In this document: positions 4,629 to 35,223 of the stretch, one piece after another
Position numbering within the stretch: the stretch's first letter is position 1
How the letters are laid out: the number at the start of each line of letters is the position of its first letter
Program-made: the position numbers and the translations under genes
The notes under the pieces: model-generated
Told to the model about the DNA's origin: nothing
Seen by the model: only the letters and a program-made list of their open reading frames with translations
The model's database searches: none
NCBI GenBank assembly: GCA_044345715.1
Contig: JBIJAP010000001.1
Coordinates: 1-40,623 of the forward strand
Length of the DNA: 40,623 nucleotides
Reading direction: 5' to 3'
Source of the DNA: Rubrivivax sp.
GTDB lineage: Bacteria > Pseudomonadota > Gammaproteobacteria > Burkholderiales > Burkholderiaceae_C

Positions 4629-6716
4629 TCAGAACCCGACCCGCAAGCCGACGCGCAGGCTGCGCGGCTCGACGACCCGGCTGTGCACGCCTTCCACGCC
4701 TTCGGCCGGCTCGCCGGGCAGGCGCGACGCATAGAAGTAGTCGACGTCCTTGCTGCGCGAGTCGAAGGCGTTGAGCAGTTCGGCAAACAGTTCCAGGCGC
4801 CCGTTGCCCCACTGCTTGGGCGTCCAGGCGGTACGAAAATTGACCAGCGTGGTGCCGCTGGAACGCACGCTGTTGTCTTCGACCAGCGCGTGCGGCCCGA
4901 GGTGCCGCACCCGCATCGAAGCGTTCCATTTGTCGAAGATCACCGACGCGCCGAGTTCGCCGGTGCGGTCGAGCGCGCCGGGCACGCGGTCGGCACCGGG
5001 CGCGTCGACAAAGCGTGCGCGGCTGGCGGTGACTGCGGCGTCGAAAGTCAGCCACGACAGTGGCTTCCAGAACGCCGACAGCTCGATACCACGGCGGCGC
5101 GTCGCGCCGGCCGGCTCGACGGCGCCGGAGTCGCCGACGAAGATCAGGTCGCTGTCTACCTCCATCCGCCACAGCGTCGCGGCCACGTTCAGGCCGGGCT
5201 GTTCGTAGCGGGCGCCGAGCTCGCTGCCGGTGCCGCGTACCAGCCCCGGCGCCGGGTCGGACGGCGCGGTGACGCCGCGGGCATCGTTCGAATGGAAGCC
5301 TCGCCCCCAGTTGCCGTACAACGCAAAGCCGCCGCCGACCCGGTACGACGCTCCGACCTTGGGTGACAACAGGTTGTCATCGACATCGCCGCTCCAGCTG
5401 TCCGGCCCGGCCAGCGCGCGGGTCTTGAAGCTGTAGTGGTCGGCACGCAGCCCGCCGAACAACTCGAGTTGGTCGGTAGCGGCGACACTGGCTTCGGCAT
5501 ACACGGCCGCTGAGAGCTCTTCCACCGCGAACAAACCGCGTGGCGCCACACGCGCGCCGGCCACGGTCTTGTACAAGCCCACCGAGCTGATGTCGTCGAA
5601 GCGGCTCTCCATGCCGAGCGCGACACGCCAGCCGTCGGCCGGCTTGAAGCGCCTTTCGATGCGCCCGCCGTAAATGTTGCGCCGGTCGGACTGTTCGAGC
5701 TGGTCGCCGTTCACCGGGTCGTCGAGAAAGAAGGTGAAGTTCGACAGCAGCTTCCAGTCGTAGTACTGCGCGTAGGCCGAGACACGCCAGGCCTCGCTGT
5801 CCAGCCGCAGCGCGGCGATCACGCGGTCGGTGTGGCCTTTCAGGTCGGGGTCGAGCGCACCAAACTCGTCGGCAATCACTGTGCCGATGGCGCGGTCGGG
5901 GACCTGCTCGGTGGGCCGCCAGGTCGCGTGGTAGACCGACAAGCTGGCGCGAATCGTGCCGACGTCGGTGTCGTGGGTGGCCTTGGCGTACATCGACCCG
6001 TGGCGCAAGCGCTCGGGCAGTTCCCAGGGGCCGTCGTAGCGCTTGGCCTCGGCGGCCAACAACACATCGGTGTCGCCCGCGGTCCATGAGGTGCCGGCCA
6101 CTGCACGTTCGTAGCCGAATCGGCCGACCTGCACCGACCCGAACGGCCGCTCGAAGCGGTCTGCCGTCGTCATGCTCGCCATGCCGACCAGGCTGAAGTC
6201 ACCTGCGTCGGCGCGGTACGGCCCTTTGCGGTAGTCGATTCGCGTCACCACTTCGGGAATCAGGCCGCCGACATCGAGGTAACCCTGGCCGTGGCCGTGG
6301 GTGCGGAAGTTCATCGGCACCTCATCGACGAGCAGGCTGAAATCGGTGCCGTGGTCGAGGTTGAAGCCGCGCAGGAAGTACTGGTTCGCCTTGCCACCGC
6401 CGGAGTGTTGTACCGCGATCAGGCCCGGCACCACTTCCAGCAACTCGGCGGTGCGCAGCAGCGGGCGCACCGTCAGGTCGACACCGGCGACAGCGCCTTC
6501 GCTGGCCGCCACCGTCCGGCCGATGCGTCGTTCGGCGCGGCCGACGACCTCGATGCGCTCGGTCGCGGCCACCAGCGTTTCGCCGGACGTCTGCGCGTTC
6601 AGGAAAGTCGGCGTGCAGCCCAGCACCACCATGCCGGCCCAGGGGGCAGGCCAGCGCGGCAGGCACGACCAGATGACATCGCTGCGGTCGCGGCGGAGGG
6701 CGCGGGGGATCTTCAT
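4629..6716 (-). CDS. TonB-dependent outer-membrane receptor, probably for Co/Ni uptake
   Basis: Plug motif GGGKANQYFLRGFNLDHGTDF, RIDYRKGPY, C-terminal Phe; substrate inferred from the adjacent NiCoT and CobW genes. Confidence 0.9.
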   Translation of the reverse strand: MKIPRALRRDRSDVIWSCLPRWPAPWAGMVVLGCTPTFLNAQTSGETLVAATERIEVVGRAERRIGRTVAASEGAVAGVDLTVRPLLRTAELLEVVPGLIAVQHSGGGKANQYFLRGFNLDHGTDFSLLVDEVPMNFRTHGHGQGYLDVGGLIPEVVTRIDYRKGPYRADAGDFSLVGMASMTTADRFERPFGSVQVGRFGYERAVAGTSWTAGDTDVLLAAEAKRYDGPWELPERLRHGSMYAKATHDTDVGTIRASLSVYHATWRPTEQVPDRAIGTVIADEFGALDPDLKGHTDRVIAALRLDSEAWRVSAYAQYYDWKLLSNFTFFLDDPVNGDQLEQSDRRNIYGGRIERRFKPADGWRVALGMESRFDDISSVGLYKTVAGARVAPRGLFAVEELSAAVYAEASVAATDQLELFGGLRADHYSFKTRALAGPDSWSGDVDDNLLSPKVGASYRVGGGFALYGNWGRGFHSNDARGVTAPSDPAPGLVRGTGSELGARYEQPGLNVAATLWRMEVDSDLIFVGDSGAVEPAGATRRRGIELSAFWKPLSWLTFDAAVTASRARFVDAPGADRVPGALDRTGELGASVIFDKWNASMRVRHLGPHALVEDNSVRSSGTTLVNFRTAWTPKQWGNGRLELFAELLNAFDSRSKDVDYFYASRLPGEPAEGVEGVHSRVVEPRSLRVGLRVGF

Positions 6717-6737: not shown

Positions 6738-7220
6738 TCAGCCGCGCAACATGCACACCGCGCTGGTGCCATCGTGGTCGAAGACCGTCTTCTCGACATC
6801 GAGCTTCTTCACGACGCCGTCTTCGACGACCATCGAATAGCGCTCCGATCGGTCGTGCAGCCCGAAGGCGCCGAGGTCGGCGACCAGGCCGATGGCCTTG
6901 GTGAACGAGGCGTCGGCGTCGCTGAGCATCGTCACCTTGCCTTCGGCGCCATGCTGTCTGCCCCAGGCGTCCATCACGAACGGGTCGTTGACCGCGACGC
7001 AGACGATTTCGTCGAAGCCTGCTGCTTTGAGCTGGTCGTGGTTGGTGACATAACCCGGCAGGTGGCTGGCAGAACACACCGGCGTGTAGGCGCCTGGCAG
7101 GCCGAACAGCGCGACCTTGCGGCCGGCGAACAATTTGTCGGATGCAACGTCGGTGATGCCGGACACGGTGATGGTCTTGAATCGGCCTGCGGGCAGGCGG
7201 TCGTTGGTCTGAATGGGCAT
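6738..7220 (-). CDS. Peroxiredoxin (Prx5/redoxin type)
   Basis: PGAYTPVCSASHLP peroxidatic motif, VNDPFVMDAW, RSERYSM. Confidence 0.93.
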   Translation of the reverse strand: MPIQTNDRLPAGRFKTITVSGITDVASDKLFAGRKVALFGLPGAYTPVCSASHLPGYVTNHDQLKAAGFDEIVCVAVNDPFVMDAWGRQHGAEGKVTMLSDADASFTKAIGLVADLGAFGLHDRSERYSMVVEDGVVKKLDVEKTVFDHDGTSAVCMLRG

Positions 7221-7267
7221 GGCAGAGCTATCCTTCACTCAGGACTTGGGTCAGGTGGGGGGGAAGA

Positions 7268-8095
7268 TCAGGCGGCGCTGCGTTGCGCGGGGGGCTGGGG
7301 TGCTGTGCGCTTGTAGGCCAGCCATGCCCAGATCAACGCCATCAGGACGATGAGCGCCGCGCCGGTCAGCGTGAACGCCAGGTCATCGAGTTCGATCGCC
7401 GGCAACAGCGCCTTGCCGATGTTGTAGAACGCCACGCCGAACGAAATGGCGACGATCAGCCAGCCCAGGATGCGCCGGTAGCGAGGCCCAGCGGTGGCCG
7501 CCTGCGAGCTGCGGTTGACGTGGCAGATGAGCCGCCCGTCGAGCGTGTCGGTGATCACCATGCCGGCGGTGAACACCAGCCCGGCGGCCAGCGCGGCGAG
7601 CAGGCCGCCGCCTTTGATGCTGGCCACGTAGCCCCACGCCGACGCCTGCGTGGCGGTGTCGAAGACGGTGGCAAACAGCACGCCGATCGCGATCACCGCC
7701 AGCGGGCTGCCGTTGTTGCGCAGTCGCGCCGGAATCAGCCGCATCTTCCAGCCGGTCGGTTGGTAGTTCTGTTGCGCCCGCAGCAGCAGCCGCAGGTTGA
7801 GCGTACCCACCAGTAGCAGCAGCAGGGTCGGAATCCACTCGAACACCGTCACCACGCCGTCGGGCACGTGGATCTTCTTCGTCAGCTGGCTGACCGCAAC
7901 CGCGATCACCGTCACCAGCAAGCCGTGGCCGATGGCGAACAGCGTGCCGATCCACTTCGCATGCCGGTGCTGGTGATTCAGCGCCTGCCAGGTGAGGCCG
8001 TCGATGCAGGCGATATGGTCAGGGTCCAGGCCGTGGCGCAGGCCGAGTACGAACATCAGCACAAGGCCAGAGAAGGAGATCAGTTCAGCGTCCAT
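7268..8095 (-). CDS. HoxN/HupN/NixA (NiCoT) nickel/cobalt permease, NhlF-like
   Basis: GLRHGLDPDHIACID signature, FAIGHG, multiple transmembrane segments. Confidence 0.92.
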   Translation of the reverse strand: MDAELISFSGLVLMFVLGLRHGLDPDHIACIDGLTWQALNHQHRHAKWIGTLFAIGHGLLVTVIAVAVSQLTKKIHVPDGVVTVFEWIPTLLLLLVGTLNLRLLLRAQQNYQPTGWKMRLIPARLRNNGSPLAVIAIGVLFATVFDTATQASAWGYVASIKGGGLLAALAAGLVFTAGMVITDTLDGRLICHVNRSSQAATAGPRYRRILGWLIVAISFGVAFYNIGKALLPAIELDDLAFTLTGAALIVLMALIWAWLAYKRTAPQPPAQRSAA

Positions 8096-8131: not shown

Positions 8132-9112
8132 TCACTTGGCGACGCAGTGCGCCAGGCCGGCGGCCAGCATCTCGCGATCGAGGTCACGGCCGATGACGAC
8201 GTACTCGGTGCGCCGCGGCTCGTCGTCGCGCCAGGCGTGGAAGCGAGCCATGGTCGTCAGCATGCGCACGCTCTGGAACACCACGCGCTCGTTGAAGCCC
8301 TTGGCGTTGAAGACGCCCTTGGTGCGCAGGTAACGGTCGCCTTCCTTCTGCAGCAGCGGCGATATCCAAGACATGAAGCGGTTCATGTCGACCGGCCGCT
8401 CTTCGCGCAGCACGATCGAGGTGATGGCCGCGTCGTGCTCGTGCGCGTGGTCGCCGAGGAACTCGGGGTCGACCTGCAGCTTGGCGTCGAGCTGGAAGGC
8501 ATTGACGCCGAGCACCAGGCCGAGGTCGATCACGCTGTTGGCACTGCGGTGCATGCGGGCCAGCGGGTTGAGCGAACGCACGCGGCGCTCGATGCGCTGC
8601 AACTGTTCTTCGTCGACGAGGTCGGTCTTGTTGACCAGCACGATGTCGGCAAAGGCCACCTGCTCCTGGGCTTCGACGCTCTGTTCCAGGTTCTTTTCCA
8701 GGTTGACCGAATCGACAACGGTGACGAATGCATCGAGCCGGGTGCCGGCGCGCACTGCTTCGTCGACGAAGAAGGTCGATGCCACCGGCGCCGGGTCGGC
8801 CAGGCCGGTGGTCTCGATCAGGATCGCGTCGAGATCGCCAGCGCGCTGGCGCAGCTTGTCGATCGTCGTGACGAGGTCGCCGCGCACGGTGCAGCACAGG
8901 CAGCCGTTGTTGAACTCGATGAGTTGCTCGTCGCCGTCCTGCTCGATCAGTTGGCCGTCGATGCCGATCTCGCCGAACTCGTTGACGATCACCGCCACCT
9001 TGCGACCCTGCTGGCCAGTGAGGATGTGGTTGAGCAGCGTCGTCTTGCCGGAACCGAGGTAGCCGGTGATGACGGTGACCGGGATCTTCTGCGCGGGGGT
9101 TGGTGCGGTCAT
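8132..9112 (-). CDS. CobW/COG0523 G3E GTPase metallochaperone
   Basis: [31 protein letters not shown]; CobW C-terminal domain. Confidence 0.93.
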
Positions 9113-9137: not shown

Positions 9138-11129
9138 TCAATGGGCCACCAGGCGCACCAGCGCGTCGCCGGTGTGACCGGCCAAGGCGTCAGCGCGGTC
9201 GGCGATCAGGTAGTTGCGGCTGCCGAAGATGCGCCGCACGTAGGCGTCGGCCTGGCGGTCCAGCGTCAGGCAGAACGTGCGGATGCCCCGCGCCGCGGCG
9301 CTGGCCACTGCATGGCGCGCGTCTTCCACCAGGTGTTCGTCTTCGACCACGTCGACGTCGGACGGCTCGCCGTCGGTCAGCATCAGGATCACCTTGTGGT
9401 CCACCGTCTGGCCATCGAGCGCGGCGCTGGCGTGGCGCAGCGCCGCGCCCATGCGCGTCGACAGGCTGCCCTGCACGGCGGCCAGCCGGGCCTGTTGCTC
9501 GGCACCGAAAGGCTCGTCGAAATCCTTGATGCGCTGGTAGTTCACCTCGTGGCGGCCGTTGGAGGCAAAGCCGTGCACCGCCACGCGGTCGCGCCCGCTG
9601 TCCAGCGCCTGAGCGACCACGCGCGCAGCGCGCTTTTCGACCTCGAGCACGGTGGTGAAGCTACCCGGCACGAAGCGCCGGGTCGACACCGACAGGTCCA
9701 TCAGCAGCACGACCGCGGTGGCCCGGTGGCCGCGGCCGTGGCGGCGGAAGATGCGGCCGTCGGGCGCCAGCCGGGAGCGCTGCTGGATCGCGCCGTCCAC
9801 AGCAGCGGTGAGGTCGAGCTCATCACCCTCGGCGAGGCGGTTCAGCCGGATCGAGCGGTCTGGCGTCTGTTCGAGGCCGCGCACCCGTTGCGCCGACTTC
9901 TGTGCGAACCGGTTGACTGCGCCGCGGTGCGTTGCCGGGCCGCTTTCGATGACCGTCGCCCAATCTTCGCGTAGCGCGTCGAGCCGGTGGTCCCACTCGG
10001 GATGGCGGGTCCGGCGACGCGTGTCTACGTCGACGCTCGGCAGGTCGGGCGGCAGCTGGTCGCGGGGCCGGAATTCGTAGTCTTCTCGCGGCGCGGTGGC
10101 CTCGTCATCGAGCGGCAGCGCGGCGTTCATGTTCCACAGCAGGGTGTTGTCGTCGCGGTAGGGCGGCTGCGGGCGGTACGAGGGCAGCAAGGGCAGGCGC
10201 ATCTTCTCGACGTCGATGGCAAGCTGGCGGCCGATGGCCTCGAATGCAGCCACGTCGTGCAGGTCGGTGGCGGCCGCGTCTTCGAACAGGGCCCGGCCCT
10301 TGTTCACCCAGGCGTTGCTGTCGACGTAGGCCGGGTCGTGCAGTGCGCGCGCCAGCCGCGCGGCCAGGCCGGCGTAGTCGAATCCCGCGCTTTCGCGTGT
10401 GGCGGTGTGGAACACGCCCCACAGGCTGCGCAGGCCGGGGTAATCGCGCAGCATCAGGCGCTCGACGCGTGCGTCCTCGACGAGAGCGATGGTCGCCAGC
10501 AACATCGGCCGCCGGCTGCCCGCCAGCCGCGCCAACGGCGAGTGCCGCAGGTGCGCCGCGATGTGCGCGATGCTGGCGCGGTACAGCGCGGCCCGGTCGG
10601 CCTGGGTCGCGGCCACGGCGCAGCGGCGCGGGAAGCGGATCACGTCGTCGGCCACGGCGGGGGCGGGCGGCGGCTGGCCGGCGGCCTGCGGCTCGTGCAG
10701 CTCGATGCCGTGTGTCGTGACGCCGAAGCCGGCCAGGTAGGCCTGCAGCGCGACACGTCGTGCGAGCAGGTCGGCCGAGTCGGCGTCGGACTGCTGATCG
10801 GCAAACAGTCGCGGATCGTCGCGCTCGAAGTACTGCAGCCGCGCCTTCGGGTGGTGCTGGTGGCGCTGCAGGCCGTGCAGTGCCCACTTGCGCAGGCTGT
10901 TGGGGTCGGGCACGGTGGCGATCAGGTCGCCCAGGCGCAAGGCCAGCGCCAACGCGGCATCGGTTGCTTCGCTGGCGACCTGCGCCAGCAGGTCGACCAG
11001 CGCTGCGGCATCGGCTGCGGCCAGACCGTCGTGCCACGCCGGATCGGCGAGCAGGACATCGAAAGTCGGGCGGTCGATGCCGCGCAGCACGTCGAGCCGC
11101 CGCGTCAGCAGGTTGCCGTTGTCAGTCAT
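9138..11129 (-). CDS. CbbO/NorD-like VWA-domain adaptor protein (copy 1)
   Basis: [41 protein letters not shown]; ATGA overlap with the upstream AAA+ gene. Confidence 0.88.
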
Positions 11130-11941
11130 CGCCGCGGCCCGAACTGCGCTTCGACAAAGCCGGCGAGCGCGGCCTGCAGGTCGCGGTCGTCGGTGATCGG
11201 TGTCGTCATCGCCAGGGCGCACGCGTCGTGCACGGCAATGCCTTCGGCGATCAAGGCGCCGGCATGCACCAGCATGCGCGTCGAGATGCCTTCGTCCAGG
11301 CCGCGCCCGCGCAGCGCGCGCGACTGCTCGGCGATCTTCACCAACTGCAGCGCCAGCGCCGGGGTGACGCCGCTCTCGTGCGCGACGACCTCGGTTTCCA
11401 CGGCCGGCGGCGGGAAGTCGAAGTCAATCGCACCGAAGCGCTGGCGCGTCGATGGCTTCATGTCCTTGGCGACACTCTGGTAGCCCGGGTTGTAGGAAAC
11501 GACGAGCCGGAAGTCGGGGTGCGCCTTGACCAGTTCACCGCGTTTGTCCAGCGGCAGCATGCGGCGCTCGTCGGTCAGCGGGTGGATCACGACGGTGGTG
11601 TCCTGCCGGGCTTCGACCACTTCGTCGAGGTAGCAGATGGCGCCGTGGCGGACGGCGGTGGTCAACGGGCCGTCGTGCCAGACGGTGCCCTGCGCGTCGA
11701 GCAGGTAACGCCCGACGAGGTCCGACGCAGCCATGTCCTCGTTGCAGGCCAGCGTGATCAAAGGCCGCTGCAGCCGCCAGGCCATGTGTTCGATGAAACG
11801 CGTCTTTCCGCAGCCGGTGGGGCCCTTGAGCATCATCGGCAAACCGCGCGCGAACGCTGCCGTGAAGAGTGCGACCTCGTTGCCGGCGGCGCGGTAGTAC
11901 GGTTCGCGCTCGATCAGGTAAGGCTGGAGTGGGTTTGTCAT
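11126..11941 (-). CDS. CbbQ/NirQ/NorQ (MoxR-type) AAA+ ATPase (copy 1)
   Basis: GPTGCGKT Walker [11 protein letters not shown] Walker [23 protein letters not shown]. Confidence 0.95.
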
Positions 11942-12049: not shown

Positions 12050-13738
12050 TCAGGCGTGTGCCTTGGCCAGCTGCTTGGCGTCACCGCCGGGCGTCTTGAC
12101 CACGGTCTTGGTCATCATCGCGATGCCTTCTTCCATGATCACCTTGCGGTTCGGCGGCGGCAGCTTGTCACCGCGCAGCTGGTCGTAAGGCACGACCACC
12201 CAGCAGGCACAACCCCAGATGCACTCGCCGGCCATGCCTTCGAAGCGGATCGCCGGCTCCGACAGCATCGGGCCGATGTCGATCAGCCACGCGTGCTCGT
12301 ACAGCTTGGCTTCCCACTCCAGCGCGTCGTAGTTCTTCTGGCTGGCCCAGAAGGCCGTCAGGTCGGTCTTTGCCACCCCGGGCAGGATGATGTTGGCGTA
12401 GGCCGTCAGCGCGTCGAAGAACTCGTGGTTGTAGGTCTGGTAGGTCGAGTCGTTGGGCAGCAGGTAGTCCTTGGTGATCAAGTCCTTGAAGCCCTTGCTG
12501 AGCAGGTCGAAACCCATGTCGCGAGAGGCGTGAATATGGACTTCGGCGTAGTCGGTCTTGAACCCATCCTTCAGCCCGCTGTACTTCGGAACGAAGTCGA
12601 TCCACTGCGCGATCACCGAGTCCCACTTCGAGCCGGCTTCGCCCGGCAGCACCTGCACGCCCGGGTGGGTGAGCTTGGCGACATCGAACAGCGTCCAGTT
12701 GCGCGACTTGGCCGACAGTGTTTCGTGCGGTGCGCCGGTGAAGCCGGCCGGCCGCAGCGCGCGGAACAGCACACGGCCGTAGTCGAGCACGGCAAAACGC
12801 ATGAACGAGTCGGCGACGAAGCGGTTGGTCACCAGCTGCTTGAAGCTCTGGCGGACTTCCTTTTCGCCCGTGGTGGTGTATGCCGTCAGTCGCGCCCAGC
12901 TCTGCTCGGGGTTGACGACGAAGAAGCCGCCGGTGAACGGGCTGCGGTACAGGTCGCCCCAGACCGCCGTGACGCCGGCGTTCTTGTCGTCGTCGAGCAT
13001 GCAGTCGAGGTCGTTCAGCGTGGTGTAGGTCGTCGGGTTGTTGTAGTACTCGCCGTCGCCGCTGTGCGGCAGCTGGCCCACGCCGATGACCGGGATGCGG
13101 CGGCCGAGCTTGACATTCGACAGGTGGCGCGCAAGGTCGACGACCATGCCGCTGCCAGTGCCGCCGGCCATGCTGAAGGCGACCATCACCAAGGAGGGCA
13201 GCGTGGCCTTCTCGACCTGGTCGACGAAGTTGCGCAGCGCCACGTCGAGCGGACGCTCGCCGGCGTAGTAGGCGTTGGCGTAGATGCCCTTGGCCACCAC
13301 GCGCGGAATGTGCCCGCCGGCGGCCGGCATCTTGATCTTGTGCGGCACGTAGGACTCGAAGTTCGGGTTCCAGTAGTAGCGCGGGTACTCGAGCTTGAGG
13401 AATTCGCGGGTGCGGTTCAGGCCCTCGAAGAATTCCGCCTTGTCAGGGATCGGCAAGGCGATGGCCTGGAACTGGAAGCGCTCGAGCGGGATGCCACGCG
13501 ACTCGAGCCGCTTCTTGAACGAGTTGGCGTAGTCGATGACGACCCCCATGTCCTGATCGCCGATGTCGACGACCATCGCCGCGAAGGTGGCACGCGGGTC
13601 GGTCAGCAGGTCTTCGATCTCACCGGTGCGCAGCAAGGCCTCGATGTAGACCGCGCCGGTGCGGCCGATGCCGATGGCATGCAGGCAGTGCGGTGCCTGG
13701 ACGCCGGTGGCGCTGTTGTAGAGGGATGATGAGGTCAT
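12050..13738 (-). CDS. Tubulin/FtsZ-fold protein A (562 aa) with C-terminal CIWGCAC motif
   Basis: N-terminal IGIGRTG loop, FSMAGGTGSG tubulin-signature-like motif; GGAG RBS. Confidence 0.8.
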   Translation of the reverse strand: MTSSSLYNSATGVQAPHCLHAIGIGRTGAVYIEALLRTGEIEDLLTDPRATFAAMVVDIGDQDMGVVIDYANSFKKRLESRGIPLERFQFQAIALPIPDKAEFFEGLNRTREFLKLEYPRYYWNPNFESYVPHKIKMPAAGGHIPRVVAKGIYANAYYAGERPLDVALRNFVDQVEKATLPSLVMVAFSMAGGTGSGMVVDLARHLSNVKLGRRIPVIGVGQLPHSGDGEYYNNPTTYTTLNDLDCMLDDDKNAGVTAVWGDLYRSPFTGGFFVVNPEQSWARLTAYTTTGEKEVRQSFKQLVTNRFVADSFMRFAVLDYGRVLFRALRPAGFTGAPHETLSAKSRNWTLFDVAKLTHPGVQVLPGEAGSKWDSVIAQWIDFVPKYSGLKDGFKTDYAEVHIHASRDMGFDLLSKGFKDLITKDYLLPNDSTYQTYNHEFFDALTAYANIILPGVAKTDLTAFWASQKNYDALEWEAKLYEHAWLIDIGPMLSEPAIRFEGMAGECIWGCACWVVVPYDQLRGDKLPPPNRKVIMEEGIAMMTKTVVKTPGGDAKQLAKAHA

Positions 13739-13872: not shown

Positions 13873-14199
13873 TCAGCAGCGGATGGAAAAGGTCTCGGTG
13901 GCGTCGAGCACACCCAGGTCGCGCAGGATGTGCGCCACCGAGGTGGCGCGTTCGTTGGCGACGTACAGCATGTAGTCCTCGACGAACAGGCCCGGGTCAC
14001 GAGAAATGGTGCCGGCCTCGATCAGCTCGACACCCTTCTCGAGGTTGATGCGCTGCAGTCTGGCCTGCCAGATCGGCGACTCGATGTGGATCGCCTCGTC
14101 GTCGACAAAGGCGATCTTCAGGAACTTGCCCCCGGCCACCGTGGGCACCATGTAGCCTTGGCCGTATTTGTCGACGACCGTCTTCCAGTCCAGTGGCAT
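13873..14199 (-). CDS. Hypothetical protein (108 aa) between tubulin-like genes B and A
   Basis: AGGAG RBS before ATG 14199; protein-like composition; same strand as the operon. Confidence 0.8.
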   Translation of the reverse strand: MPLDWKTVVDKYGQGYMVPTVAGGKFLKIAFVDDEAIHIESPIWQARLQRINLEKGVELIEAGTISRDPGLFVEDYMLYVANERATSVAHILRDLGVLDATETFSIRC

Positions 14200-14228: not shown

Positions 14229-15755
14229 TCAGCCGATTTCGCCACGCAGTGCGTCCAGCGGCACCGCGATCCAGTGACCACCGTCGCCCAGACTCGCACC
14301 GGCCATGCCTTCGATGCGGCGCGACGGCTCGCACAGCAGCACGCCTTGTTCGAGCAGCAGCGCGTGCGACGCAAGCCGGTCGGCGGCGGGCATCGTGTCG
14401 TAGGCGTCACGTGCCCGCACGAAGAGGTCGAGGTCCGTCTTGGCCAGTCGTGGCAGCAGAAACTGCACGGTGCCAGCCGGCGCACCGGGCACAAGGTGGG
14501 TCGGCACCTCGGGCAGCAGTGCCGCGTCGAGCGCTTCGGCCCACGCCCTGGCGGTGGCGCTCGGATCATCGCCATCGGCCTGCCGAAGCTCGATGAACTC
14601 GGGCGCATAGCCCGGCAGCAGGCCCAGCGCCGCCGGCACATCGACACCGACCGGGGCCGTGTGTGCGCTGCCGAAGCCGAACAGGTGGATCCAGCGCGCG
14701 CCCCAAGGGGTGCGTGCAGCCGAATGTTGAGTCGAAGGCGCAGCCACCCAGTTCAACAGCCGTAGGGCTTCCCATAGGTTGGCGCCATGGCGGTGCTGAA
14801 ACAGCGACACCAACTCGGTGTTGACCACCGCGCGGGTCGACGCGACATCGGCCCCCGACGGCTGAGGGACGACCACGAAGCCGGCGGTGAACGGGTTCTT
14901 GTAGAGGTCACCACACGACAGCGTTACGCCGCGGTTCTTCTCTTCGTCACACAACACGTCGAGTTCGGCGAGCACCGGGAACAGCGATGCGCCACCGTCG
15001 GCCAGCGCCTCGTTGGCATGCGGCGCGATGCCGATGCCCGTGATGAGAACGCGGCGGCCGAACACGCCGTTCGACAGGTGGCGGGCGAGGTCGAGCGCGA
15101 TGCCGCTGCCGGTGCCTCCGGCCAGGCCGAACACCAGGCAGACCACAGCGTCGCCCTGGGTCGCTTCGACACTGCGGGCGAAACGCTTGAGCGCGGCTGC
15201 CATCGGCCGATCACCGTCGTAGTAGGCGCGGCCGTAGGCGGCTTTGGCCAAAGCCCGAGACTGCCGCTCGCCGACCCGCGCCGTCGCCGCTTGCGTCGGC
15301 AGCCAGGCCCCTGCGTCGGGGTTCGGGTGGTACATCGGGTACTCAAGCTTCAGGAAATCGCAATAGCTCGACAGCGTTTCCTGCAACAGCCCGGCTTCAG
15401 GCAGCGCGAGCGAGATCGTCTCCACCTGCGCACGGCTGGCGTCGAAGCGCCCGGCCAGGGTGCGCACCGCACCGAGGTCCTGCTCGCCGATGTCCACTGC
15501 CAGCGCCGTCAGACGCGAGCCGGGCACGTCGAGAAGGTCCGCTGGCGCGTCGCGCAGGAACTGCTCGACCACCCGGGCACCGGCACCGCCGACACCGATG
15601 AGATGCACGCCGAACGGCAGCGCAGCTGCATCGGCGATGCGATGCACGCCGCGCTTGAGTGCATCGAGCTTGCGCTGCTGGAGCTTGGCCTCGGTGCTGC
15701 CGATGGCCGGCGTCGGCCGGCCGCGCATCAGGTCGATTCCTGCGGTGACTGTCAT
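14229..15755 (-). CDS. Tubulin/FtsZ-fold protein B (508 aa)
   Basis: IGVGGAG, FGLAGGTGSG; shares FLKLEYP, DLARHLSN, PFTxGF and EGMAG blocks with protein A; start set at ATG 15755, downstream of the leader terminator. Confidence 0.8.
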   Translation of the reverse strand: MTVTAGIDLMRGRPTPAIGSTEAKLQQRKLDALKRGVHRIADAAALPFGVHLIGVGGAGARVVEQFLRDAPADLLDVPGSRLTALAVDIGEQDLGAVRTLAGRFDASRAQVETISLALPEAGLLQETLSSYCDFLKLEYPMYHPNPDAGAWLPTQAATARVGERQSRALAKAAYGRAYYDGDRPMAAALKRFARSVEATQGDAVVCLVFGLAGGTGSGIALDLARHLSNGVFGRRVLITGIGIAPHANEALADGGASLFPVLAELDVLCDEEKNRGVTLSCGDLYKNPFTAGFVVVPQPSGADVASTRAVVNTELVSLFQHRHGANLWEALRLLNWVAAPSTQHSAARTPWGARWIHLFGFGSAHTAPVGVDVPAALGLLPGYAPEFIELRQADGDDPSATARAWAEALDAALLPEVPTHLVPGAPAGTVQFLLPRLAKTDLDLFVRARDAYDTMPAADRLASHALLLEQGVLLCEPSRRIEGMAGASLGDGGHWIAVPLDALRGEIG

Positions 15756-15776: not shown

Positions 15777-15820
15777 AAAACGAAAAAAGCCCATCCGGCG
15801 CTGGTGTGCACCGGATGAGC
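15777..15820 (-). terminator. Intrinsic terminator (attenuator) in the leader of the tubulin-like operon
   Basis: Minus strand GCTCATCCGGTGC-ACACCA-GCGCCGGATGGGC followed by TTTTTTCGTTTT, about 20 nt before the start codon. Confidence 0.85.
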
Positions 15821-15856
15821 CTTGTTGCTCTGATCACCAACGGCCTTGATGCCGTC
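15817..15856 (-). promoter_or_regulatory. Dual hexaloop ANTAR (AmiR)-type RNA element
   Basis: GACGGC-AUCAAG-GCCGUU and GAGC-AACAAG-GCUC; the second stem overlaps the terminator 5' arm. Confidence 0.7.
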
Positions 15857-15976: not shown

Positions 15977-16339
15977 CTAAGGGTTCTCCGAGGGCCAACG
16001 CCGGGCGTTGCCGGTGCCGGCCACGGCGACCGCGAGGCGCCGCGCCTGCAGTTGCTCGGCGGTCATCAGCCCCTTGGCCGAGAGCAGCGATTCGGCTGCG
16101 CTCAACCATTGTTCGTAGTAGCTCCTGGGCTTGCCGCCAGTCGCCTCGACGCCTGCGTCGAGAGCCACCTCGCGCGAGAAGCACTCGACCCAGTCGGACC
16201 ATGTGAAGTGCCCCGCCTGACTCAGGCTGACGACGATGGCAAAGGCCCGGGCCTCCCAAGGCGCGGCAAACTTCAGGTCGTCGTCGCCGCCGAGCGGCAG
16301 CCGGAGCGACAACAGTACTGGAGTGGCGCCGGCGCTCAT
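15977..16339 (-). CDS. Nitrile hydratase accessory protein (P14K/NhlE-like activator)
   Basis: FAAPWEARAFAIVVSL...FTWSDW...YYEQWLSAAESLL; follows the NHase subunits. Confidence 0.88.
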   Translation of the reverse strand: MSAGATPVLLSLRLPLGGDDDLKFAAPWEARAFAIVVSLSQAGHFTWSDWVECFSREVALDAGVEATGGKPRSYYEQWLSAAESLLSAKGLMTAEQLQARRLAVAVAGTGNARRWPSENP

Positions 16340-16364
16340 CGCCACCAGGTCGACACGAAGGCCT

Positions 16365-16715
16365 TCATGCCGGGTCGAGGTAGTCGTCGAACAGGTCCAC
16401 GCGCAGCGTGTCGGATACGTGAGCGTCTGCACCCCACACTTCGCGCGCACTGAAGTGCACGCTGTAGCAGTGCTGAGGCTTGTCGCCGAGTCCATGAGCG
16501 TGGGTGTCTGGGAAGGCGAACACGCCATGGTCCAGTTCGATCACGCCGATCTTGCCGCGCAGGTAGCCAGGCAGCCGGGTGTGCGTGCTTGGGTTGTGGT
16601 TGCGCACGCGGACCCGCTCCCCGCGCTGGAAGCGAGGTACCGCGTCGGCGGCGATGCGCGCCGATGCGCCGGTGGCGACGACGACGGGGACGATGTCGGG
16701 AGTGAGCAGCATCAT
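16365..16715 (-). CDS. nthB: Nitrile hydratase beta subunit, C-terminal (SH3-like) half
   Basis: RFQRGERVRVR...HTRLPGYLRGKIG...FPDTHAHG...YSVHFSAREVWG; own AGGAG RBS and ATGA overlap. Confidence 0.9.
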   Translation of the reverse strand: MMLLTPDIVPVVVATGASARIAADAVPRFQRGERVRVRNHNPSTHTRLPGYLRGKIGVIELDHGVFAFPDTHAHGLGDKPQHCYSVHFSAREVWGADAHVSDTLRVDLFDDYLDPA

Positions 16716-17038
16716 GGGGCTCCTGCCGCCGACGGCGACGCCTTCAACAACGCGATGCGGGCGTCGAGCTCTTCGCGCGACACGAAGCCGCGCTTGATCA
16801 GCGCTTCCTCGAAAGCGAACATCCAGTGTTCGTAGTACGACGAGTCGAGGTAATGCGCCGGGGCGATCTTCTCGATCGCGTGGCGGAACTCGTCGACGGT
16901 GTAGCCCGCAAAGACGAAGGTCGCGGCGAACAGGCCGAAGGCGCGGCCTTCCCAGGGCTCGTGAAACACCGGTTCGTTGGTTTCGGTCAGCACCGGGCCC
17001 AGGCCGTGCATCCCGCCGAGGTCGTGGATGCCGTTCAT
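16712..17038 (-). CDS. nthB: Nitrile hydratase beta subunit, N-terminal half
   Basis: [37 protein letters not shown]. Confidence 0.9.
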
Positions 17039-17658
17039 GCGCTGCGCTCCTGTCCGGTGCCGGGAGCCGGCAGCCGGGTCACGCCGATCATCGAGTCGCG
17101 TGTCACCAGCGCCGCCAGTGTTTCCTCGCTGAGGCCGTCGGTGCCGGCCGGCCGCTGCGGCAGCACCAGGTAGCGCAGTTCGGCGGTGGTGTCCCAGGTG
17201 CGGACCTCGACGCTGTCTGGCAACTCGGTGCCGAACTCCTTCAGCACGCCGCGCGGGTCGCTGACCACCCTGGCGCGGTACGGCGCGGACTTGTACCAGA
17301 CCGGCGGCAGGCCCAGCGTCGGCCACGGGTAGCACGAACACAAAGTGCAAACGACGACGTTGTGTACCGTGTCGGTGTTCTCCAGCACGACCATGTCTTC
17401 GCCCTGCAGGCCGGAGAAGCCGAGTTCCTTGATCGCGGCCGTGGCGTCGCTGAGCAGCCGCTGCCTGTAGTCGGGGTCGACCCAGGCGCGCGCCACCACC
17501 TTGGCGCCGTTGCGCGGGCCGATCTTCGACTCGTAGGTGTCGACCAGCACGTCCAGCGCCTTCGGGTCGATCAGGCCTCTTTCGGCGAGCAAGGACTCGA
17601 GTGCCTTGACGCGGATCGCGGCATCGGACTCAGGTGCGGTGTGTCGAGGGGGTGTCAA
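17035..17658 (-). CDS. nthA: Cobalt-type nitrile hydratase alpha subunit
   Basis: [11 protein letters not shown] (Thr/Tyr indicate Co-type), [22 protein letters not shown]; TTG start after AGGAGG is tentative. Confidence 0.96.
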
Positions 17659-17730
17659 GAGGCCTCCTGGTGGCACAAGCGGTCGGTCAGGGTGTGGAGA
17701 GGGGGAGACCACCCATGCCGCTTGAGAAAC

Positions 17731-18162: not shown

Positions 18163-19434
18163 TCAAGCCTGCTCCAGGACCCGGGCGCCTGCGTCGAGTT
18201 TGTCGAAACTGGCCTTGGCGGCCTTGTAGCCGGTCAGGTCGTCCTTGCTGGCGCCGGGCAGGATCACGTTGCCGTAGGCGGTGAGCACGTCGAAGAACTC
18301 GTTGCGGAACGTCAGGCAGTGGGCGCTGCCGTTCTTCAGGTAGTGGCTGGCAATCACGTCCTTCAGCCCGCTGTCGATCAGTTCCGGCTGCATCACGCGC
18401 GAAGCGTGCACGTGGATCTCGGCGTAGTCGGTCTTGAAGCCGTCGGCCAGCCCGGAGTACTTGGGCACGAAGCCGATCCACTGCTGGAGCACGGCGTCCC
18501 ACTTCGAGATCGCTTCGCCGGGCAACACCTGCACACCCGGGTGCGACAGCTTGGCGACGTCGAACAGCGTGCACTTGCCGCCGCTCTTTTCAAGCGCGCG
18601 CAGCAGATGCTCGCCGCCAGCGCTTGCGGCCCAGCGCATGAACGAGTCGGCGACGAAGCGGTTGGTGACCATCTGCTTGAAGCGCTGGCGCACCTCCTTC
18701 AGGCCGGTGCTGGTGTAGGCCGACAGCCGCTGCCAGCTCTGCTCCGACGAGATCACGAAGAAGCCGCCGCCGAACGGGTTGTCGGCCGCCTTCAGCGCGG
18801 TGTCCACCGCGTCGATGGCCTGGTACTGCGAGGCGCTGTTGAAGTAGTCGCCGTCGCCGCTGTGGCTGAGCTGGCCGACGCCGACCAGCCTGGCGCCCGC
18901 CGGCAGCCGGGCCGCCAGGTCGCGTGCCAGGTCGATCGCCATGCCGCTGCCGGTGCCTCCGGCCAGGCCGAACGCCAGGAACACGACCGACGGGCTTTCG
19001 CCGGTCTTCACGTGGTCGGCAAAGCGCTGCAGCAGACCGCCGACCGGTGAGTCGGCGCCCTTGCTGTTCAGCCCGAGGGTTGCCTTGGCGATGGCGCGCG
19101 GAATGTGTTCGCCGGCCTTCGGCAGGGCAACGCCTTTCGGCAGCTTCGGCAATGCCGATGCTGCGGGCACCGCCAACGCCACCGATTCGTAGTGAAAGCG
19201 CTCGGCCGGGATGCCGCGCGACTTCAGGCGTGCCTTCAGCGAACGGGCATAGTCGTCGGGCACCATGATGTCCTCGTCGCCGATGTCGATCAGCAAGGCG
19301 GCGAAGCTGGCGCCGGGCGCGGCAAGCAGGTCTTCGATCTCGCCGGTGCGGATCAGCGCTTCGATGTGGGCTGCGCCGGTGCGGCCGATGCCGACGGCGT
19401 GGATGCGGGTCGCGGCGCTGGGGTTGGTGTTCAT
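18163..19434 (-). CDS. Tubulin/FtsZ-fold protein C (423 aa), shorter paralog of protein A
   Basis: VGIGRTG, FGLAGGTGSG; long near-identical blocks with A (EALIRTGEIEDLL, VTNRFVADSFMR, HPGVQVLPGEA, GFKTDYAEIH). Confidence 0.8.
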   Translation of the reverse strand: MNTNPSAATRIHAVGIGRTGAAHIEALIRTGEIEDLLAAPGASFAALLIDIGDEDIMVPDDYARSLKARLKSRGIPAERFHYESVALAVPAASALPKLPKGVALPKAGEHIPRAIAKATLGLNSKGADSPVGGLLQRFADHVKTGESPSVVFLAFGLAGGTGSGMAIDLARDLAARLPAGARLVGVGQLSHSGDGDYFNSASQYQAIDAVDTALKAADNPFGGGFFVISSEQSWQRLSAYTSTGLKEVRQRFKQMVTNRFVADSFMRWAASAGGEHLLRALEKSGGKCTLFDVAKLSHPGVQVLPGEAISKWDAVLQQWIGFVPKYSGLADGFKTDYAEIHVHASRVMQPELIDSGLKDVIASHYLKNGSAHCLTFRNEFFDVLTAYGNVILPGASKDDLTGYKAAKASFDKLDAGARVLEQA

Positions 19435-19490: not shown

Positions 19491-21707
19491 TCAGCGCGAC
19501 AGCCGCAGCACCATCGGCGGCAGCACACGCGGCAGGCTGTCGATGCGGTCAAGCACGCGGTACTGGCCAGCGCCGAAGATGTGGCGCACGTAGGTGTCGG
19601 CGGCCGGGTCCAGCGTCACGCAGAACACGGCGATGCCACGGCGCCCGGCTTCCATCACGGCACGGCGGGCGTCTTCGACGAGGTAGCGGCGGTCGTGGAT
19701 GTCGATGTCGTGCGGCTCGCCGTCGGTGATGAACAGCAGCAGCTTGCGACGCCGAGCCTGTGCCGCCAGCCGCGTCGTTGCGTGGCGCAGCGCAGCGCCC
19801 ATTCGCGTCGACAGCCGGCTGCGCAACCCGGCGAGCCGGGCGAGGGCGCTGGCACCCACCGCGTCGCCGAAGTCCAGCGCGAGTTCGTAGCGCACTTCGT
19901 TGCGGCCGTTGGAGCAGAAGGCGTCGATGGCACAGACGTCACCGGCATGCTCCAGCGTCAGCGTGGTCAGCAAGGCGGCGACACGCGCCAAGTCGAGGAC
20001 ACTGCCGCCGCTGGCCACCGGGTCGGCGGTCGACGTGGAGCTGTCGATCAGCACCAGCGCGGCGACCTCGCGGTCGCGGTGGTCGAAACGCTGGTGGACC
20101 TTCTCGCCGGGCGGGTGGCGGCTGCGGCGTTCGATGGCCGAGCGCACTGCAGCGTCGACGTCCAACTCATCACCGCGCCACTGCGCCCGCAGCTTGACGC
20201 GTTCGCGCAGCCGGCCAGCGCGCAACACCTTGTCCAGGCGCTGCAGCAGCGAGGCGTGTTGTTCGAGTGCCGCCTGCAGCGCGGTGGGGTCCACACGCGC
20301 CGGCCGGCCTTCGAGCACGGTGCACCAGGCGCTGCGGTAGTCGCCAACCAGGCGGTCCCACTCGCGGTACTGCAACCGCGCCAGCGGCGATTCGGGGCTG
20401 CGTTCATCGGCCGGCGCGGCGCGGCCGCGGGGTGCTGCCTTGCCGTCGTCAGCCTGTGCGTCGTACTCGCGGTCGGTGTCGCTCTGCGGCGGCACCGGCA
20501 GTTCGTCGGCCACCGACTGCAGCTCGGGCGGGGTGTCGTCCGGGGGTTGCCAGAGGTGGCTGTTGTCGTCGCGGTAGGCCGGTTCGACGACGTAGTCGCG
20601 GTGGTTGAACTGCAAGCGCATCTGGCCGATGTCGTTGCCGAGCCTGGACGCGATGTCGCGCAGCAACGCCGGCAGCAGCGTGATCCGCCCGTTCTCGGTG
20701 GCCTCTGCGACCAGCCGCCGCGCCTTCACGACCCAGGGGTGCGGGTCGGCGTAGGCTGGGTCCAGCAGGCCACGCGCCAGCCGCAGCATCAACATGTTGA
20801 AAGACGTGCCGTGCGCCGGCTCGGCCACATGGAACGTCAACCACAGGCCTCGCAGCCCGGGCATTTCGGCACAAGCGATGCCTTCGACGCGGGCGTCTTC
20901 GAGCACACCGACCAGCGCCATCTGGATCGGCTTCAGGCCGCCACGTTCGAAGCGGTGCGTTGAATGGCGCAGGTGCGCTGCGGCGTGTGCCGCAGCGGCG
21001 TCATACCAGCGACGCGCCGCAGTACCGCGCAATGCCCGGCCGGCCTCGGGCAGGTGCAGCCCGAGGTTGCTGAGGAAGGGCCGGCGCGATGCCAACCCGT
21101 GCTCGATCGGCAGCAGCGCCGGGCTGATGTCGAACAGCGCCCGCAGCAGGTAGGCCAGCCGGCCCTTGCTGGTCGCCAGGTCACTGCCTGCAGTGCCATC
21201 CGTGCCGGGCGACAACACCCGCGTCGACTCGCGCGATCGCAGTTCGAAGTGCGCCAGCCGGGCGTCATGGCCGGCTTCATCGTTGTCGGGAACGACCTGG
21301 CCTTGGCGCAGCCCGAGCCGCGCCCACATCAACAACTCGGCCGGCGAGCCGTGGCGCAATACCTCTTCAGAACTGGCCAGCAGCGCCAGCGTGCATGGCC
21401 GCGCGTGTTCTGCCACCTCCTGCACCGCCGTCAGCCATGCCGCCAGACCGCCCGGCCCCGACAGCCGCGGCGCCAGCAGCGCCAGCCGCTGCACGATGGC
21501 GCCGAGCAGCGCTGCATCGGCACCTTGCAGGCGCAACGTGACCAGGCTTTCGGTCAGCATGTCGGCGGCATCGCCGTCGAGCGTGGCGTCGAGCACCTTG
21601 CGCGCGCGGCTCATCTCGATGCCAACGCTGGCAGGCAAGCCGGCGTCAGCCAGCGCGTCGCCCAAGGTCGCGAGCGGATGGCGAAGACGGCGTGGGTCGC
21701 TGCTCAC
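19491..21707 (-). CDS. CbbO/NorD-like VWA-domain adaptor protein (copy 2)
   Basis: [43 protein letters not shown]. Confidence 0.88.
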   Translation of the reverse strand: MSSDPRRLRHPLATLGDALADAGLPASVGIEMSRARKVLDATLDGDAADMLTESLVTLRLQGADAALLGAIVQRLALLAPRLSGPGGLAAWLTAVQEVAEHARPCTLALLASSEEVLRHGSPAELLMWARLGLRQGQVVPDNDEAGHDARLAHFELRSRESTRVLSPGTDGTAGSDLATSKGRLAYLLRALFDISPALLPIEHGLASRRPFLSNLGLHLPEAGRALRGTAARRWYDAAAAHAAAHLRHSTHRFERGGLKPIQMALVGVLEDARVEGIACAEMPGLRGLWLTFHVAEPAHGTSFNMLMLRLARGLLDPAYADPHPWVVKARRLVAEATENGRITLLPALLRDIASRLGNDIGQMRLQFNHRDYVVEPAYRDDNSHLWQPPDDTPPELQSVADELPVPPQSDTDREYDAQADDGKAAPRGRAAPADERSPESPLARLQYREWDRLVGDYRSAWCTVLEGRPARVDPTALQAALEQHASLLQRLDKVLRAGRLRERVKLRAQWRGDELDVDAAVRSAIERRSRHPPGEKVHQRFDHRDREVAALVLIDSSTSTADPVASGGSVLDLARVAALLTTLTLEHAGDVCAIDAFCSNGRNEVRYELALDFGDAVGASALARLAGLRSRLSTRMGAALRHATTRLAAQARRRKLLLFITDGEPHDIDIHDRRYLVEDARRAVMEAGRRGIAVFCVTLDPAADTYVRHIFGAGQYRVLDRIDSLPRVLPPMVLRLSR

Positions 21708-21731
21708 CGTGGGCTGGCCGACAACGCGGCG

Positions 21732-22583
21732 TCAGAACGACGCCGTGACGGCGGTTTCGAGCGCCTGCACCATGTCGGCGTCGTCGGTCATCGGATGCAC
21801 GATCGCCATCCGGCAGGCGGTGACGGGGTCGATGCCGCGTGACATCAGCGCGCCGGCGTGTACCAGCATGCGCGTCGATGCCCCCTCGTCCAGGCCGTGG
21901 CCCTTCAGGCGGCGCGTGCGCTCGCCGAGCGCCACCAGGCGGGCTGCATCGGCGGCGGGCAGCCGTGCTTCATGGGCAACGATCTCGGCCTCGATGGCGG
22001 CTTCGGGGAAGCCGAACTCGATGGCGGCAAAACGCTGCCGCGTCGAGGTCTTCAAGTCCTTCATCACCGTCTGGTAGCCGGGGTTGTACGAGATCACCAG
22101 GTGGAAGTCTGGGTGGGCGTGCAGCACTTCGTTGAGCTTCTCGATCGGCAGCATGCGGCGCGCGTCGGTCAGCGGGTGGATCACCACCGTGGTGTCGGCC
22201 CGGGCCTCGACCACCTCGTCGAGGTAGCAGATCGCACCGTGACGTGCCGCCAGCGTCAACGGCCCGTCCTGCCAACGTGTTCCTTCAGCGTCGAGCAGCC
22301 ATCGGCCGACCAGGTCGCCGGCAGTGATGTCTTCGTTGCACGCCAGCGTGATCAGTGGCTTGCCCAGCCGCCACGCCATGTGTTCGACGAAGCGGCTCTT
22401 GCCGCAGCCCGTCGGGCCTTTCAGCATCAGCGGCAGACGCAGCGCGTGCGCGACGTCGAACAGCGCGACTTCGCCACCGACCGCACGGTAGTAGGGTTCA
22501 CGCGTGATGCGGTACGCGGCGAGCGGGTCGGCCGGCGTGCCGGCCCCGCCCACCGGCCGCGACAACAGCGATGCCGCGGTCAT
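21732..22583 (-). CDS. CbbQ/NirQ/NorQ AAA+ ATPase (copy 2)
   Basis: [34 protein letters not shown]. Confidence 0.95.
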
Positions 22584-23630: not shown

Positions 23631-23707
23631 GGTGTGTGCTCCTGGGGTGGGGGTGGGTCAGGAACGGTGGCGACGCTCAATGGGCGAGCAACGCCAGCCG
23701 CCGGCAG

Positions 23708-23752
23708 AAAACAAAAAAAGCGCCTGAGGAACAGGGCGTTCCTTCAGGCGCT
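23708..23752 (-). terminator. amiE leader intrinsic terminator (AmiR-controlled attenuator)
   Basis: AGCGCCTGAAGGAAC-GCCCT-GTTCCTCAGGCGCT followed by TTTTTTGTTTT upstream of amiE. Confidence 0.88.
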
Positions 23753-23784
23753 GATGCCGGGTTGCCGATCGACGGTGCTGTCGA
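23747..23784 (-). promoter_or_regulatory. Dual hexaloop ANTAR-type element of the amiE leader
   Basis: UCGAC-AGCACC-GUCGA and GGC-AUCAGC-GCC; the second overlaps the terminator 5' arm. Confidence 0.7.
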
Positions 23785-23806
23785 GCGCAAAAAAACTGAT
23801 GAGCGA

Positions 23807-23865
23807 AGGCTAATTTAGGGCGAGACAGACTGTCAAGCCTCATGCCAGAATATTTTCTGAGGAAA
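23807..23865 (-). promoter_or_regulatory. amiE promoter TTGACA-N18-TAGCCT plus operator TTTCTGAGGAAA (23854-23865) in the amiE/amiC divergent region
   Basis: Consensus -35 at 23836-23831; near-perfect palindrome upstream. Confidence 0.6.
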
Positions 23866-23907
23866 ACAACATCGACAGCTGCCCAAGCTCAGCAGGAGCG
23901 CCATCCC

Positions 23908-29240: not shown

Positions 29241-29272
29241 GCGGTGTTCCTCCTGGTTGATTGCTTGGGCTG

Positions 29273-30589: not shown

Positions 30590-30690
30590 GATTTCTCTCT
30601 AGCTCGCATCCATGGCCCAGCCCATCCAGGCCGGCCAAATGTGCGAATCAGTGTGTGTACGAATGAGTGTACTGACCGGACAGTCCTGCG

Positions 30691-30948: not shown

Positions 30949-30957
30949 CAACGCAGC

Positions 30958-33800: not shown

Positions 33801-33805
33801 TGCAG

Positions 33806-35076: not shown

Positions 35077-35081
35077 AAAGC

Positions 35082-35146: not shown

Positions 35147-35223
<77 letters not shown>

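Follow-up and report, generated by a model that had tools for sequence, protein, structure and literature searches.

A cysteine triad in a predicted tubulin-fold protein of Rubrivivax as the likely cobalt site of an acetonitrile hydratase-type nitrile hydratase

Acetonitrile hydratase (ANHase) of Rhodococcus jostii RHA1 is described, in the accessible parts of PMC3511329 and PMC3680314, as a cobalt nitrile hydratase (NHase) with the gene order alpha-AnhE-beta, AnhE being a cobalt metallochaperone. One Co, two Cu, and one Zn are attributed to it in the available text of PMC3766881, Co, Cu, and Zn are also given in that of PMC7193024, and its nitrile substrates are given in what is accessible of PMC6941271. 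The classical NHases have the motif C-[TS]-L-C-S-C, according to the available portion of PMC7329996. The window analysed here, the whole stretch of 40,623 nucleotides at positions 1 to 40,623 of contig JBIJAP010000001.1 (Rubrivivax sp., assembly GCA_044345715.1), carries on its minus strand genes for two tubulin-like paralogues, here called A and B, with a small gene, E, between them, and for a third paralogue, C (Table 1). A has a CxxxCxC motif, and its three cysteines, C506, C510, and C512, would, with a probability put at roughly 0.72, be the cobalt-binding thiolates of an NHase of the RHA1 ANHase type with two predicted tubulin-fold subunits, only A keeping the site in this lineage.

Translation of the minus strand gives CIWGCAC in frame with the open reading frame (ORF) of A, B has no cysteine at the aligned place, and C terminates ahead of this segment, all as the sequence-only reading had described. 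In the alignment B reads EGMAGASLGDGGHWIAVPLDALRG where A has the motif, with S501, G505, and H507 replacing the cysteines; the two proteins are 33% identical, B being approximately 55 kDa. There is no remnant of the cysteine segment beyond the stop of C in any of the three frames, and equally short copies are present in other genomes, so that C as a frameshifted full-length copy was rejected. The conservation of the cysteines, proposed earlier as a check, was found in full among the homologues listed: all three are kept in 120/120 (the best 120 of 776; 77-93% identity), 117 of which have CIWGCAC and three CFWGCAC. Because all of these keep the motif, the reading frame of A is supported. There are five cysteines in A, and CxxxCxC appears in 22 of 100,000 shuffles of its sequence; these shuffles and the conservation together rule out chance or a frame artefact as the source of the motif.

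A matches 16 plasmid records, including that of pRHL2 from R. jostii RHA1, where it is 49% identical to RS41540 over 569 columns. B is 39% identical to RS41530, and E is 37% identical to RHA1_RS41535 (E-value 7e-26); an E-like gene is present at 74/80 GTDB loci. On pRHL2 the gene order is MarR, sensor, amidase, RS41530 (514 aa), RS41535 (99 aa), RS41540 (568 aa), HTH, nickel transporter, and acetyl-CoA hydrolase, and the masses computed for the three central products are 55.8, 11.1, and 63.0 kDa. ANHase is presumably made up of 63 and 56 kDa subunits plus an 11.1 kDa AnhE, encoded in a pRHL2 cluster with these same neighbours; Okamoto and Eltis in 2007, and Okamoto et al. in 2010, are said to have reported the subunit sizes, AnhE, and the cluster. 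Gene order, context, and these reported masses identify the pRHL2 genes as those of the cobalt ANHase.

By sequence and gene order, then, B-E-A belongs to the RHA1-type ANHase family, as a mirror-image variant of it. The traits of the RHA1 system that are found here are two homologous large subunits, an anhE-like gene between them, a linked aliphatic amidase and cobalt transporter, and a cysteine triad in the pair. The labels of these proteins in RefSeq and UniRef are only "tubulin-like" or "hypothetical". One A homologue (80% identity) is from Natronocella acetinitrilica, a species called an acetonitrile degrader in the title of a reference, the title being the part of that source available. 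The 16 plasmid records with the cluster are from Rhodococcus, Agrobacterium, Brucella anthropi, and Shinella, and some of these plasmids are mobilisable or conjugative.

In RHA1 it is the upstream gene, the counterpart of B, that carries the motif, as CLLGCAC, while the counterpart of A reads GLCGKPLSGATGW and is motif-less. The order alpha-AnhE-beta means, therefore, that the alpha subunit of RHA1 is the upstream, CLLGCAC-bearing gene. The homologues of RS41530 have the motif in 120/120 of those listed (the best 120 of 895), as CIWGCAC in 93, CLLGCAC in 22, and CILGCAC in five. That A might be the orthologue of the motif-bearing RHA1 subunit, or that the gene order has simply been swapped, was rejected, since A groups in trees with the motif-less downstream subunit of RHA1. 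The cysteine motif itself is not to be counted as new; the primary ANHase papers may already mention it, and the RHA1 authors are said perhaps to have remarked on a Cys-rich motif. No mention of CLLGCAC was found in the literature within reach of the search, most subscription papers being beyond it.

Across 160 loci (80 from GTDB, 75 from metagenomes, and five from plasmids), both motif regions are readable in 119, the other 41 being truncated or lone genes. Both subunits carry the motif at 53 of the 119 scorable loci, the downstream subunit (A) only at 62, and the upstream subunit (B) only at four, and there is no locus at which neither does so; under a stricter scoring rule the corresponding counts are 52, 51, four, and zero of 107. 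Among the distant representatives, motif-bearing proteins are found down to approximately 31-34% identity (P0127, P0135), with the variants CIWGCVC and CLWGCTC. At loci L162 and L163 the upstream motif has decayed (ECLWGTAY and EWLWGSGC), apparently recently and independently, beside an intact downstream site.

The history of the two subunits was followed in trees built without the motif columns. A quick tree of 70 rows (62 chosen from 223 by identity, four distant representatives, and four Tubulin_2 outgroup sequences) separates the upstream (95) and downstream (99) subunits, with A joining RHA1 RS41540, B joining RS41530, and C nesting in the downstream clade near A. The nearest outside relatives (P0174, P0182, P0187, P0192, and similar), which served for the outgroup, are Tubulin_2 proteins of 860-916 aa that align with A over its N-terminal 275 residues only. 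A more careful tree of 58 rows, from which 12 were omitted (four representatives, seven extra copies including C, and one long branch), gives the downstream clade support of 100/100.

On this careful tree the motif state requires three changes, and the motif-less sets are nested among motif-bearing rows: the proteobacterial upstream subunits (100/99), the L162 and L163 upstream subunits (100/99), and the Rhodococcus downstream subunits (100/100). The simplest reading of these sequences is that there were three independent losses from a two-site ancestor, the counts alone being unable to separate gain from loss. That ancestor would have had two duplicated subunits with one site each, and the site would have been lost from the upstream subunit in the proteobacterial clade to which Rubrivivax belongs, separately in L162 and L163, and from the downstream subunit in Rhodococcus.

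A second segment follows the cysteines, with the pattern RxFLKxEYPRYYWNPNxE, at A residues 109-128, decaying wherever the cysteines are gone. The comparison was made on aligned subunits, of which 53 upstream ones have the motif and 50 do not, while 101 downstream ones have it and four do not. In this alignment R111, K115, Y121, Y122, N124, P125, N126, E128, W475, and E505 are invariant in the motif-bearing subunits of both lineages; these positions, and also V259, L479, A511, and V515, hardly vary in either motif-bearing group and drop below 60% in both motif-less groups. That two distant segments are kept or lost together suggests a single functional site inside a subunit, the strength of the test being limited by the small and closely related Rhodococcus group (four rows).

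An ANHase in which the triad binds Zn or Cu, or is structural, with the cobalt elsewhere, is an unlikely alternative, as in RHA1 a single triad accompanies a single Co, none of the 119 scored loci is without a triad, and the loss of an Arg/Tyr/Trp-rich segment along with the cysteines is more in keeping with an active site than with a structural Zn knuckle. It is the reported presence of one Co, two Cu, and one Zn in the RHA1 enzyme (in the available text of PMC3766881) that brings such a site into consideration, together with the spacing of CxxxCAC, which is unlike CxLCSC and is without the serine, and the conserved His, Asp, and Glu residues in both subunits.

It had been proposed from the sequence alone that A is a catalytic subunit and B a non-catalytic partner. 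For this lineage that is still the best explanation, given the membership of the ANHase family, the conserved cysteines, the absence of any locus with neither motif, and the co-loss of the second segment, but it cannot be extended to the whole family, where RHA1 shows the reverse arrangement and both sites are found in many lineages. C lacks both the cysteine segment and the 109-128 segment, the latter being deleted. Extra copies of A without the cysteine motif and the 109-128 (EYP) segment make up 15/15 of those examined, C included, the others being at L012, L014, L023, L046, L055, L058, L062, L064, L065, L067, L079, L080, L082, and L155, and in the quick tree they arose at least twice. By analogy with the NHase activators, they may be accessory or swapping partners.

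The AlphaFold2 models of A and B have a mean predicted local distance difference test (pLDDT) score of 90.6 and 90.5, respectively. In the model of A the motif region is at pLDDT 90-92, with C506 at the end of a strand and C510 and C512 in the loop that follows. The A model matches CetZ with Z 20.9 (root mean square deviation (rmsd) 5.3, 316 aligned) and BtubA with Z 18.8 (rmsd 4.2, 367 aligned, model residues 16-533), and the B model matches CetZ with Z 21.1 (rmsd 4.3, 289 aligned), while unrelated folds reach Z 9.8 or less. Both proteins are thereby predicted to be members of the tubulin/FtsZ superfamily along almost the whole chain. The signature loop reads AGGTGSG in both A and B and is kept in all four subunit groups, most rows having [AG]GGTGSG and others a variant of it. 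Among the listed fold matches of the two models, which are tubulin/FtsZ proteins and weak Rossmann folds, there is no NHase structure. Searched by sequence, the PDB gives only weak FtsZ/CetZ and tubulin matches for A and no relative for E, and no solved ANHase relative was found there.

A predicted complex of A and B, with Fe included, scores 0.50, the best control being at 0.02, with contact agreement of at least 55% between runs and a partner pLDDT of at least 84. This mark was attained by 116/157 solved pairs and by 2/215 mismatched pairs, both of the latter at 0.60 or under. The prediction lends weak support to an A-B heterodimer, the score possibly having been helped by likeness to tubulin dimers. 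The words "nitrile", "hydratase", and "Rhodococcus" are absent from the main text of Makarova and Koonin 2010 (PMC2875224), and a search for which most subscription papers were out of reach gave no paper that connects ANHase with the tubulin fold or reports that the motif was lost reciprocally.

The minus-strand order at the Rubrivivax locus is amidase, CbbQ, VWA, C, classical Co-NHase, a 220-base gap with the leader of B, B, E, A, CbbQ, VWA, CobW, NicO, redoxin, and TonB receptor. From A onwards to the TonB receptor gene no intergenic gap exceeds 109 bases, which makes co-transcription of all these genes plausible. Within approximately 8 kb around B-E-A at the 80 GTDB loci, some of which are on shorter contigs, there is CobW at 66, redoxin at 45, a Co/Ni transporter at 39, an amidase at 34, CbbQ at 33, and a classical NHase alpha at eight; CobW is present without a classical NHase alpha nearby at 59/80. 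The sequence-only reading had the metal site explain the Co/Ni import, CobW, and thiol-redox genes, and these counts do favour B-E-A as their client, but the classical Co-NHase in the window, to which that reading made no reference, is a second possible one. The cobalt and redox genes travel with B-E-A, and its hosts, mostly nitrile-using, could share them.

The proximity of the classical enzyme, which is directly upstream in the window and has an alpha-like gene somewhere in 67/78 genomes, also bears on whether A and B could be GTP-dependent tubulin-like scaffolds, or cobalt-storage or maturation proteins for the classical NHase, with the cysteine loop as a transient holder of cobalt. The whole predicted tubulin fold, with its intact signature loop, would suit such a role. 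Classical alpha genes, however, are near only 8/80 loci, 11/78 genomes show no alpha-like gene at all, though these may be incomplete, and according to PMC3511329 and PMC3680314 it is the RHA1 homologues that constitute the enzyme, which leaves this role very improbable.

The aliphatic amidase of the cluster, 73% identical to that of RHA1, the presence of an amidase near 34/80 loci, the AmiC/AmiR amide sensing, and the identity of the residues around the site across lineages all make it quite improbable that the A-only proteobacterial pair, instead of being an acetonitrile hydratase, uses a cobalt-thiolate site to act on cyanide, thiocyanate, cyanamide, or a different nitrile. What would allow such a change of substrate is that A is just 49% identical to the RHA1 subunit, with the site in the other subunit, and that most hosts also have a classical NHase-like gene, which could mean that substrates are divided between the two.

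Table 1. Features of the nitrile cluster and its surroundings in the window
Feature	Position	Strand	Basis or remark
CIWGCAC, C506/C510/C512 of A	12203..12223	-	Translation, alignment; likely cobalt-thiolate ligands
A, downstream large subunit, 562 aa, 62.5 kDa	12050..13738	-	RHA1_RS41540 orthologue; motif-bearing here
A residues 109-128 (RTREFLKLEYPRYYWNPNFE)	13355..13414	-	Co-lost with the cysteines; candidate second shell of the active site
AGGTGSG, tubulin/FtsZ signature (T4-like) nucleotide loop of A	13148..13168	-	Pfam Tubulin/Tubulin_2 matches just below cut-off
E, 108 aa, homologue of RHA1_RS41535 (99 aa, 11.1 kDa)	13873..14199	-	Likely AnhE-type cobalt metallochaperone
B, upstream large subunit, motif lost	14229..15755	-	RHA1_RS41530 orthologue; probable start ATG 15755, ORF extends to 15794
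B residues 501-507, SLGDGGH, degenerate motif counterpart	14274..14294	-	Alignment
B leader: hairpin pair, both short (loops ATCAAG, AACAAG); second hairpin and a terminator-like stem with U-run overlap	15786..15856	-	
C, 423 aa, derived truncated copy of A	18163..19434	-	49% identity to A; nested in downstream clade
TonB-dependent receptor	4629..6716	-	Pfam; at only 2/80 loci
Redoxin/peroxiredoxin-like protein	6738..7238	-	Pfam Redoxin
NicO/HoxN-type Ni/Co transporter	7268..8095	-	Pfam NicO
CobW/COG0523 GTPase metallochaperone	8132..9112	-	Pfam cobW, CobW_C
VWA-domain partner of AAA+ ATPase	9138..11222	-	Pfam VWA
CbbQ/NirQ/NorQ-type AAA+ ATPase	11126..11941	-	Pfam AAA_5 and CbbQ_C
Classical NHase: split beta (16712-17038 and 16365-16715), accessory protein (15977-16339)	15977..17038	-	
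Classical Co-type NHase alpha (CTLCSC)	17035..17712	-	TIGR01323 over cut-off, 311 bits; separate enzyme
Second CbbQ (21732-22583) and VWA (19491-21707) pair, between amidase and C	19491..22583	-	Pfam
Aliphatic amidase	22590..23630	-	73% identical to amidase of RHA1 cluster; would turn amide into acid and ammonia
AmiC-type amide sensor and AmiR-type ANTAR antiterminator, divergent	23842..25723	+	Pfam

The leader of B has the architecture recognised by ANTAR proteins, two hexaloop hairpins with an overlapping terminator, and the A at loop position 1 of their consensus (A at position 1, G at position 4), while its position 4 is A. A strict dual-hairpin scan of 137 other leaders gave no matches. 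The B leader is a possible AmiR antitermination site, on the strength of this architecture. There is an exact TTGACA upstream of its hairpins, and leaders that are similar, as judged by eye, are present in 6/9 close relatives (L003, L007, L013, L027, L029, L055). The amidase leader (23630-23845, minus strand) has a hairpin and then a T-run, as expected for AmiR control.

If the cysteines of A do bind cobalt as the thiolates of an ANHase-type enzyme, the metal would enter via NicO, perhaps also via the TonB receptor, and would be handed by CobW and E to the cysteine loop of A. If classical NHase is a guide, oxidation would turn one cysteine into a sulfinate and another into a sulfenate, and a low-spin Co(III) centre would then hydrate small aliphatic nitriles to amides, with Arg, Tyr, and Trp residues of A 109-128 forming a second shell. 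Acid and ammonia would then be formed from the amide by the amidase, B would have a structural role, and AmiC/AmiR could give amide-responsive control through the B leader.

There are several points that weigh against this interpretation. The names anhA, anhE, and anhB for the pRHL2 genes rest on order, context, and reported masses, and the characterised RHA1 enzyme bears the motif on the other subunit, to which A is not orthologous. ANHase also holds Cu and Zn, which are possible alternative metals for the cysteines. In the careful tree the upstream subunits form one clade in 35% of the bootstrap trees and the root is not settled. Motif-bearing queries were used to pick the loci by similarity, and the loci are also related to one another, so that any with neither motif could be hidden; the B-only state is known from four closely related loci, and one 89-aa fragment (P0215) reads CFCGCAR. 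An NHase-alpha-like gene at E <= 1e-30 is present in 67/78 host genomes, in 44 of them above the cut-off, so that the classical enzyme could be another client of the cobalt genes.

The beta gene of the classical NHase in the window is in two overlapping ORFs (16365-17038), and because the same split recurs in eight other loci (L007, L008, L026, L027, L050, L052, L055, L068) it is probably genuine. The NHase of Streptomyces canus also has a split beta, according to the accessible part of PMC7329996. Further along the window, a tRNA at 35150-35223 has as its neighbours genes for a tyrosine integrase (32291-33658), small HTH proteins, and a T5orf172 protein, and 28542-35223 is likely to be an integrated element adjoining the nitrile cluster. 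An Rfam scan of the window found one tRNA only.

ANHase is usually cited as the oddity of one strain, with its Co, Cu, and Zn. The family to which A and B belong spans the Proteobacteria, Actinobacteria, and Cyanobacteria under the annotations "hypothetical" or "tubulin-like", which would suggest that nitrile metabolism may be undercounted and that a second biocatalyst scaffold may be overlooked. Candidate ligands and second-shell residues can now be named, and natural controls are supplied by the two-site, A-only, and B-only versions and by the site-less copies. According to the models, a fold known from GTP-driven filaments, that of tubulin/FtsZ, could be host to a metabolic metalloenzyme that has converged on NHase-like chemistry. 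A wider picture, put forward tentatively and with more doubt than confidence, is of a tubulin/FtsZ branch turned metalloenzyme, in which a cobalt claw arose independently of classical NHase, two sites came first and catalysis was left later on opposite subunits by lineage, nucleotide is still bound via the signature loop, and C with CbbQ/VWA forms a subunit-swapping or cobalt-loading machine.

NorQ and NorD insert non-haem iron into nitric oxide reductase. With the CbbQ/CbbO and NorQ/NorD pairs of AAA+ and VWA proteins the locus shares the domain pair next to A, found in approximately 33/80 loci, but one of the Rubrivivax pairs is directly behind the amidase and could serve the amidase instead. 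A and B have in common with the tubulin/FtsZ superfamily (CetZ, BtubA/B, TubZ; Pfam Tubulin_2/FtsZl1-type) their predicted fold, the signature loop, and, as predicted, a paralogous heterodimer; the identity, however, is only 10-18%, and A has a C-terminal cysteine loop, the 109-128 segment, and a metabolic gene context.

The closest system is the RHA1 ANHase, which likewise has homologous large subunits of approximately 55 and 63 kDa flanking a small chaperone gene, a CxxxCAC motif, and a linked aliphatic amidase, Ni/Co transporter, AmiC-like sensor, and MarR. The two differ in the place of the motif, the upstream 55.8 kDa subunit there and the downstream 62.5 kDa subunit here, and in that the Rubrivivax locus adds CobW, a redoxin, two CbbQ/VWA pairs, the site-less C, and a classical NHase.

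Classical Co/Fe NHase and thiocyanate hydrolase (PF02979/TIGR01323) have in common with B-E-A a compact three-cysteine motif in one of two subunits, an amidase partner, and, probably, cobalt and a dedicated activator. There is, however, no PF02979/TIGR01323 profile match in A, B, or C, where the neighbouring classical alpha scores 311 bits, and the CxxxCAC spacing of A (CIWGCAC) differs from the C[TS]LCSC of those enzymes, which is CTLCSC in the alpha subunit of the same window, so that A as a member of the classical NHases is excluded by both profile and motif; the subunits of B-E-A are, in addition, predicted tubulin-fold proteins of 55-63 kDa. B-E-A is best read, by analogy, as a likely mechanistic analogue of classical NHase, the likeness between the two being one of convergence.

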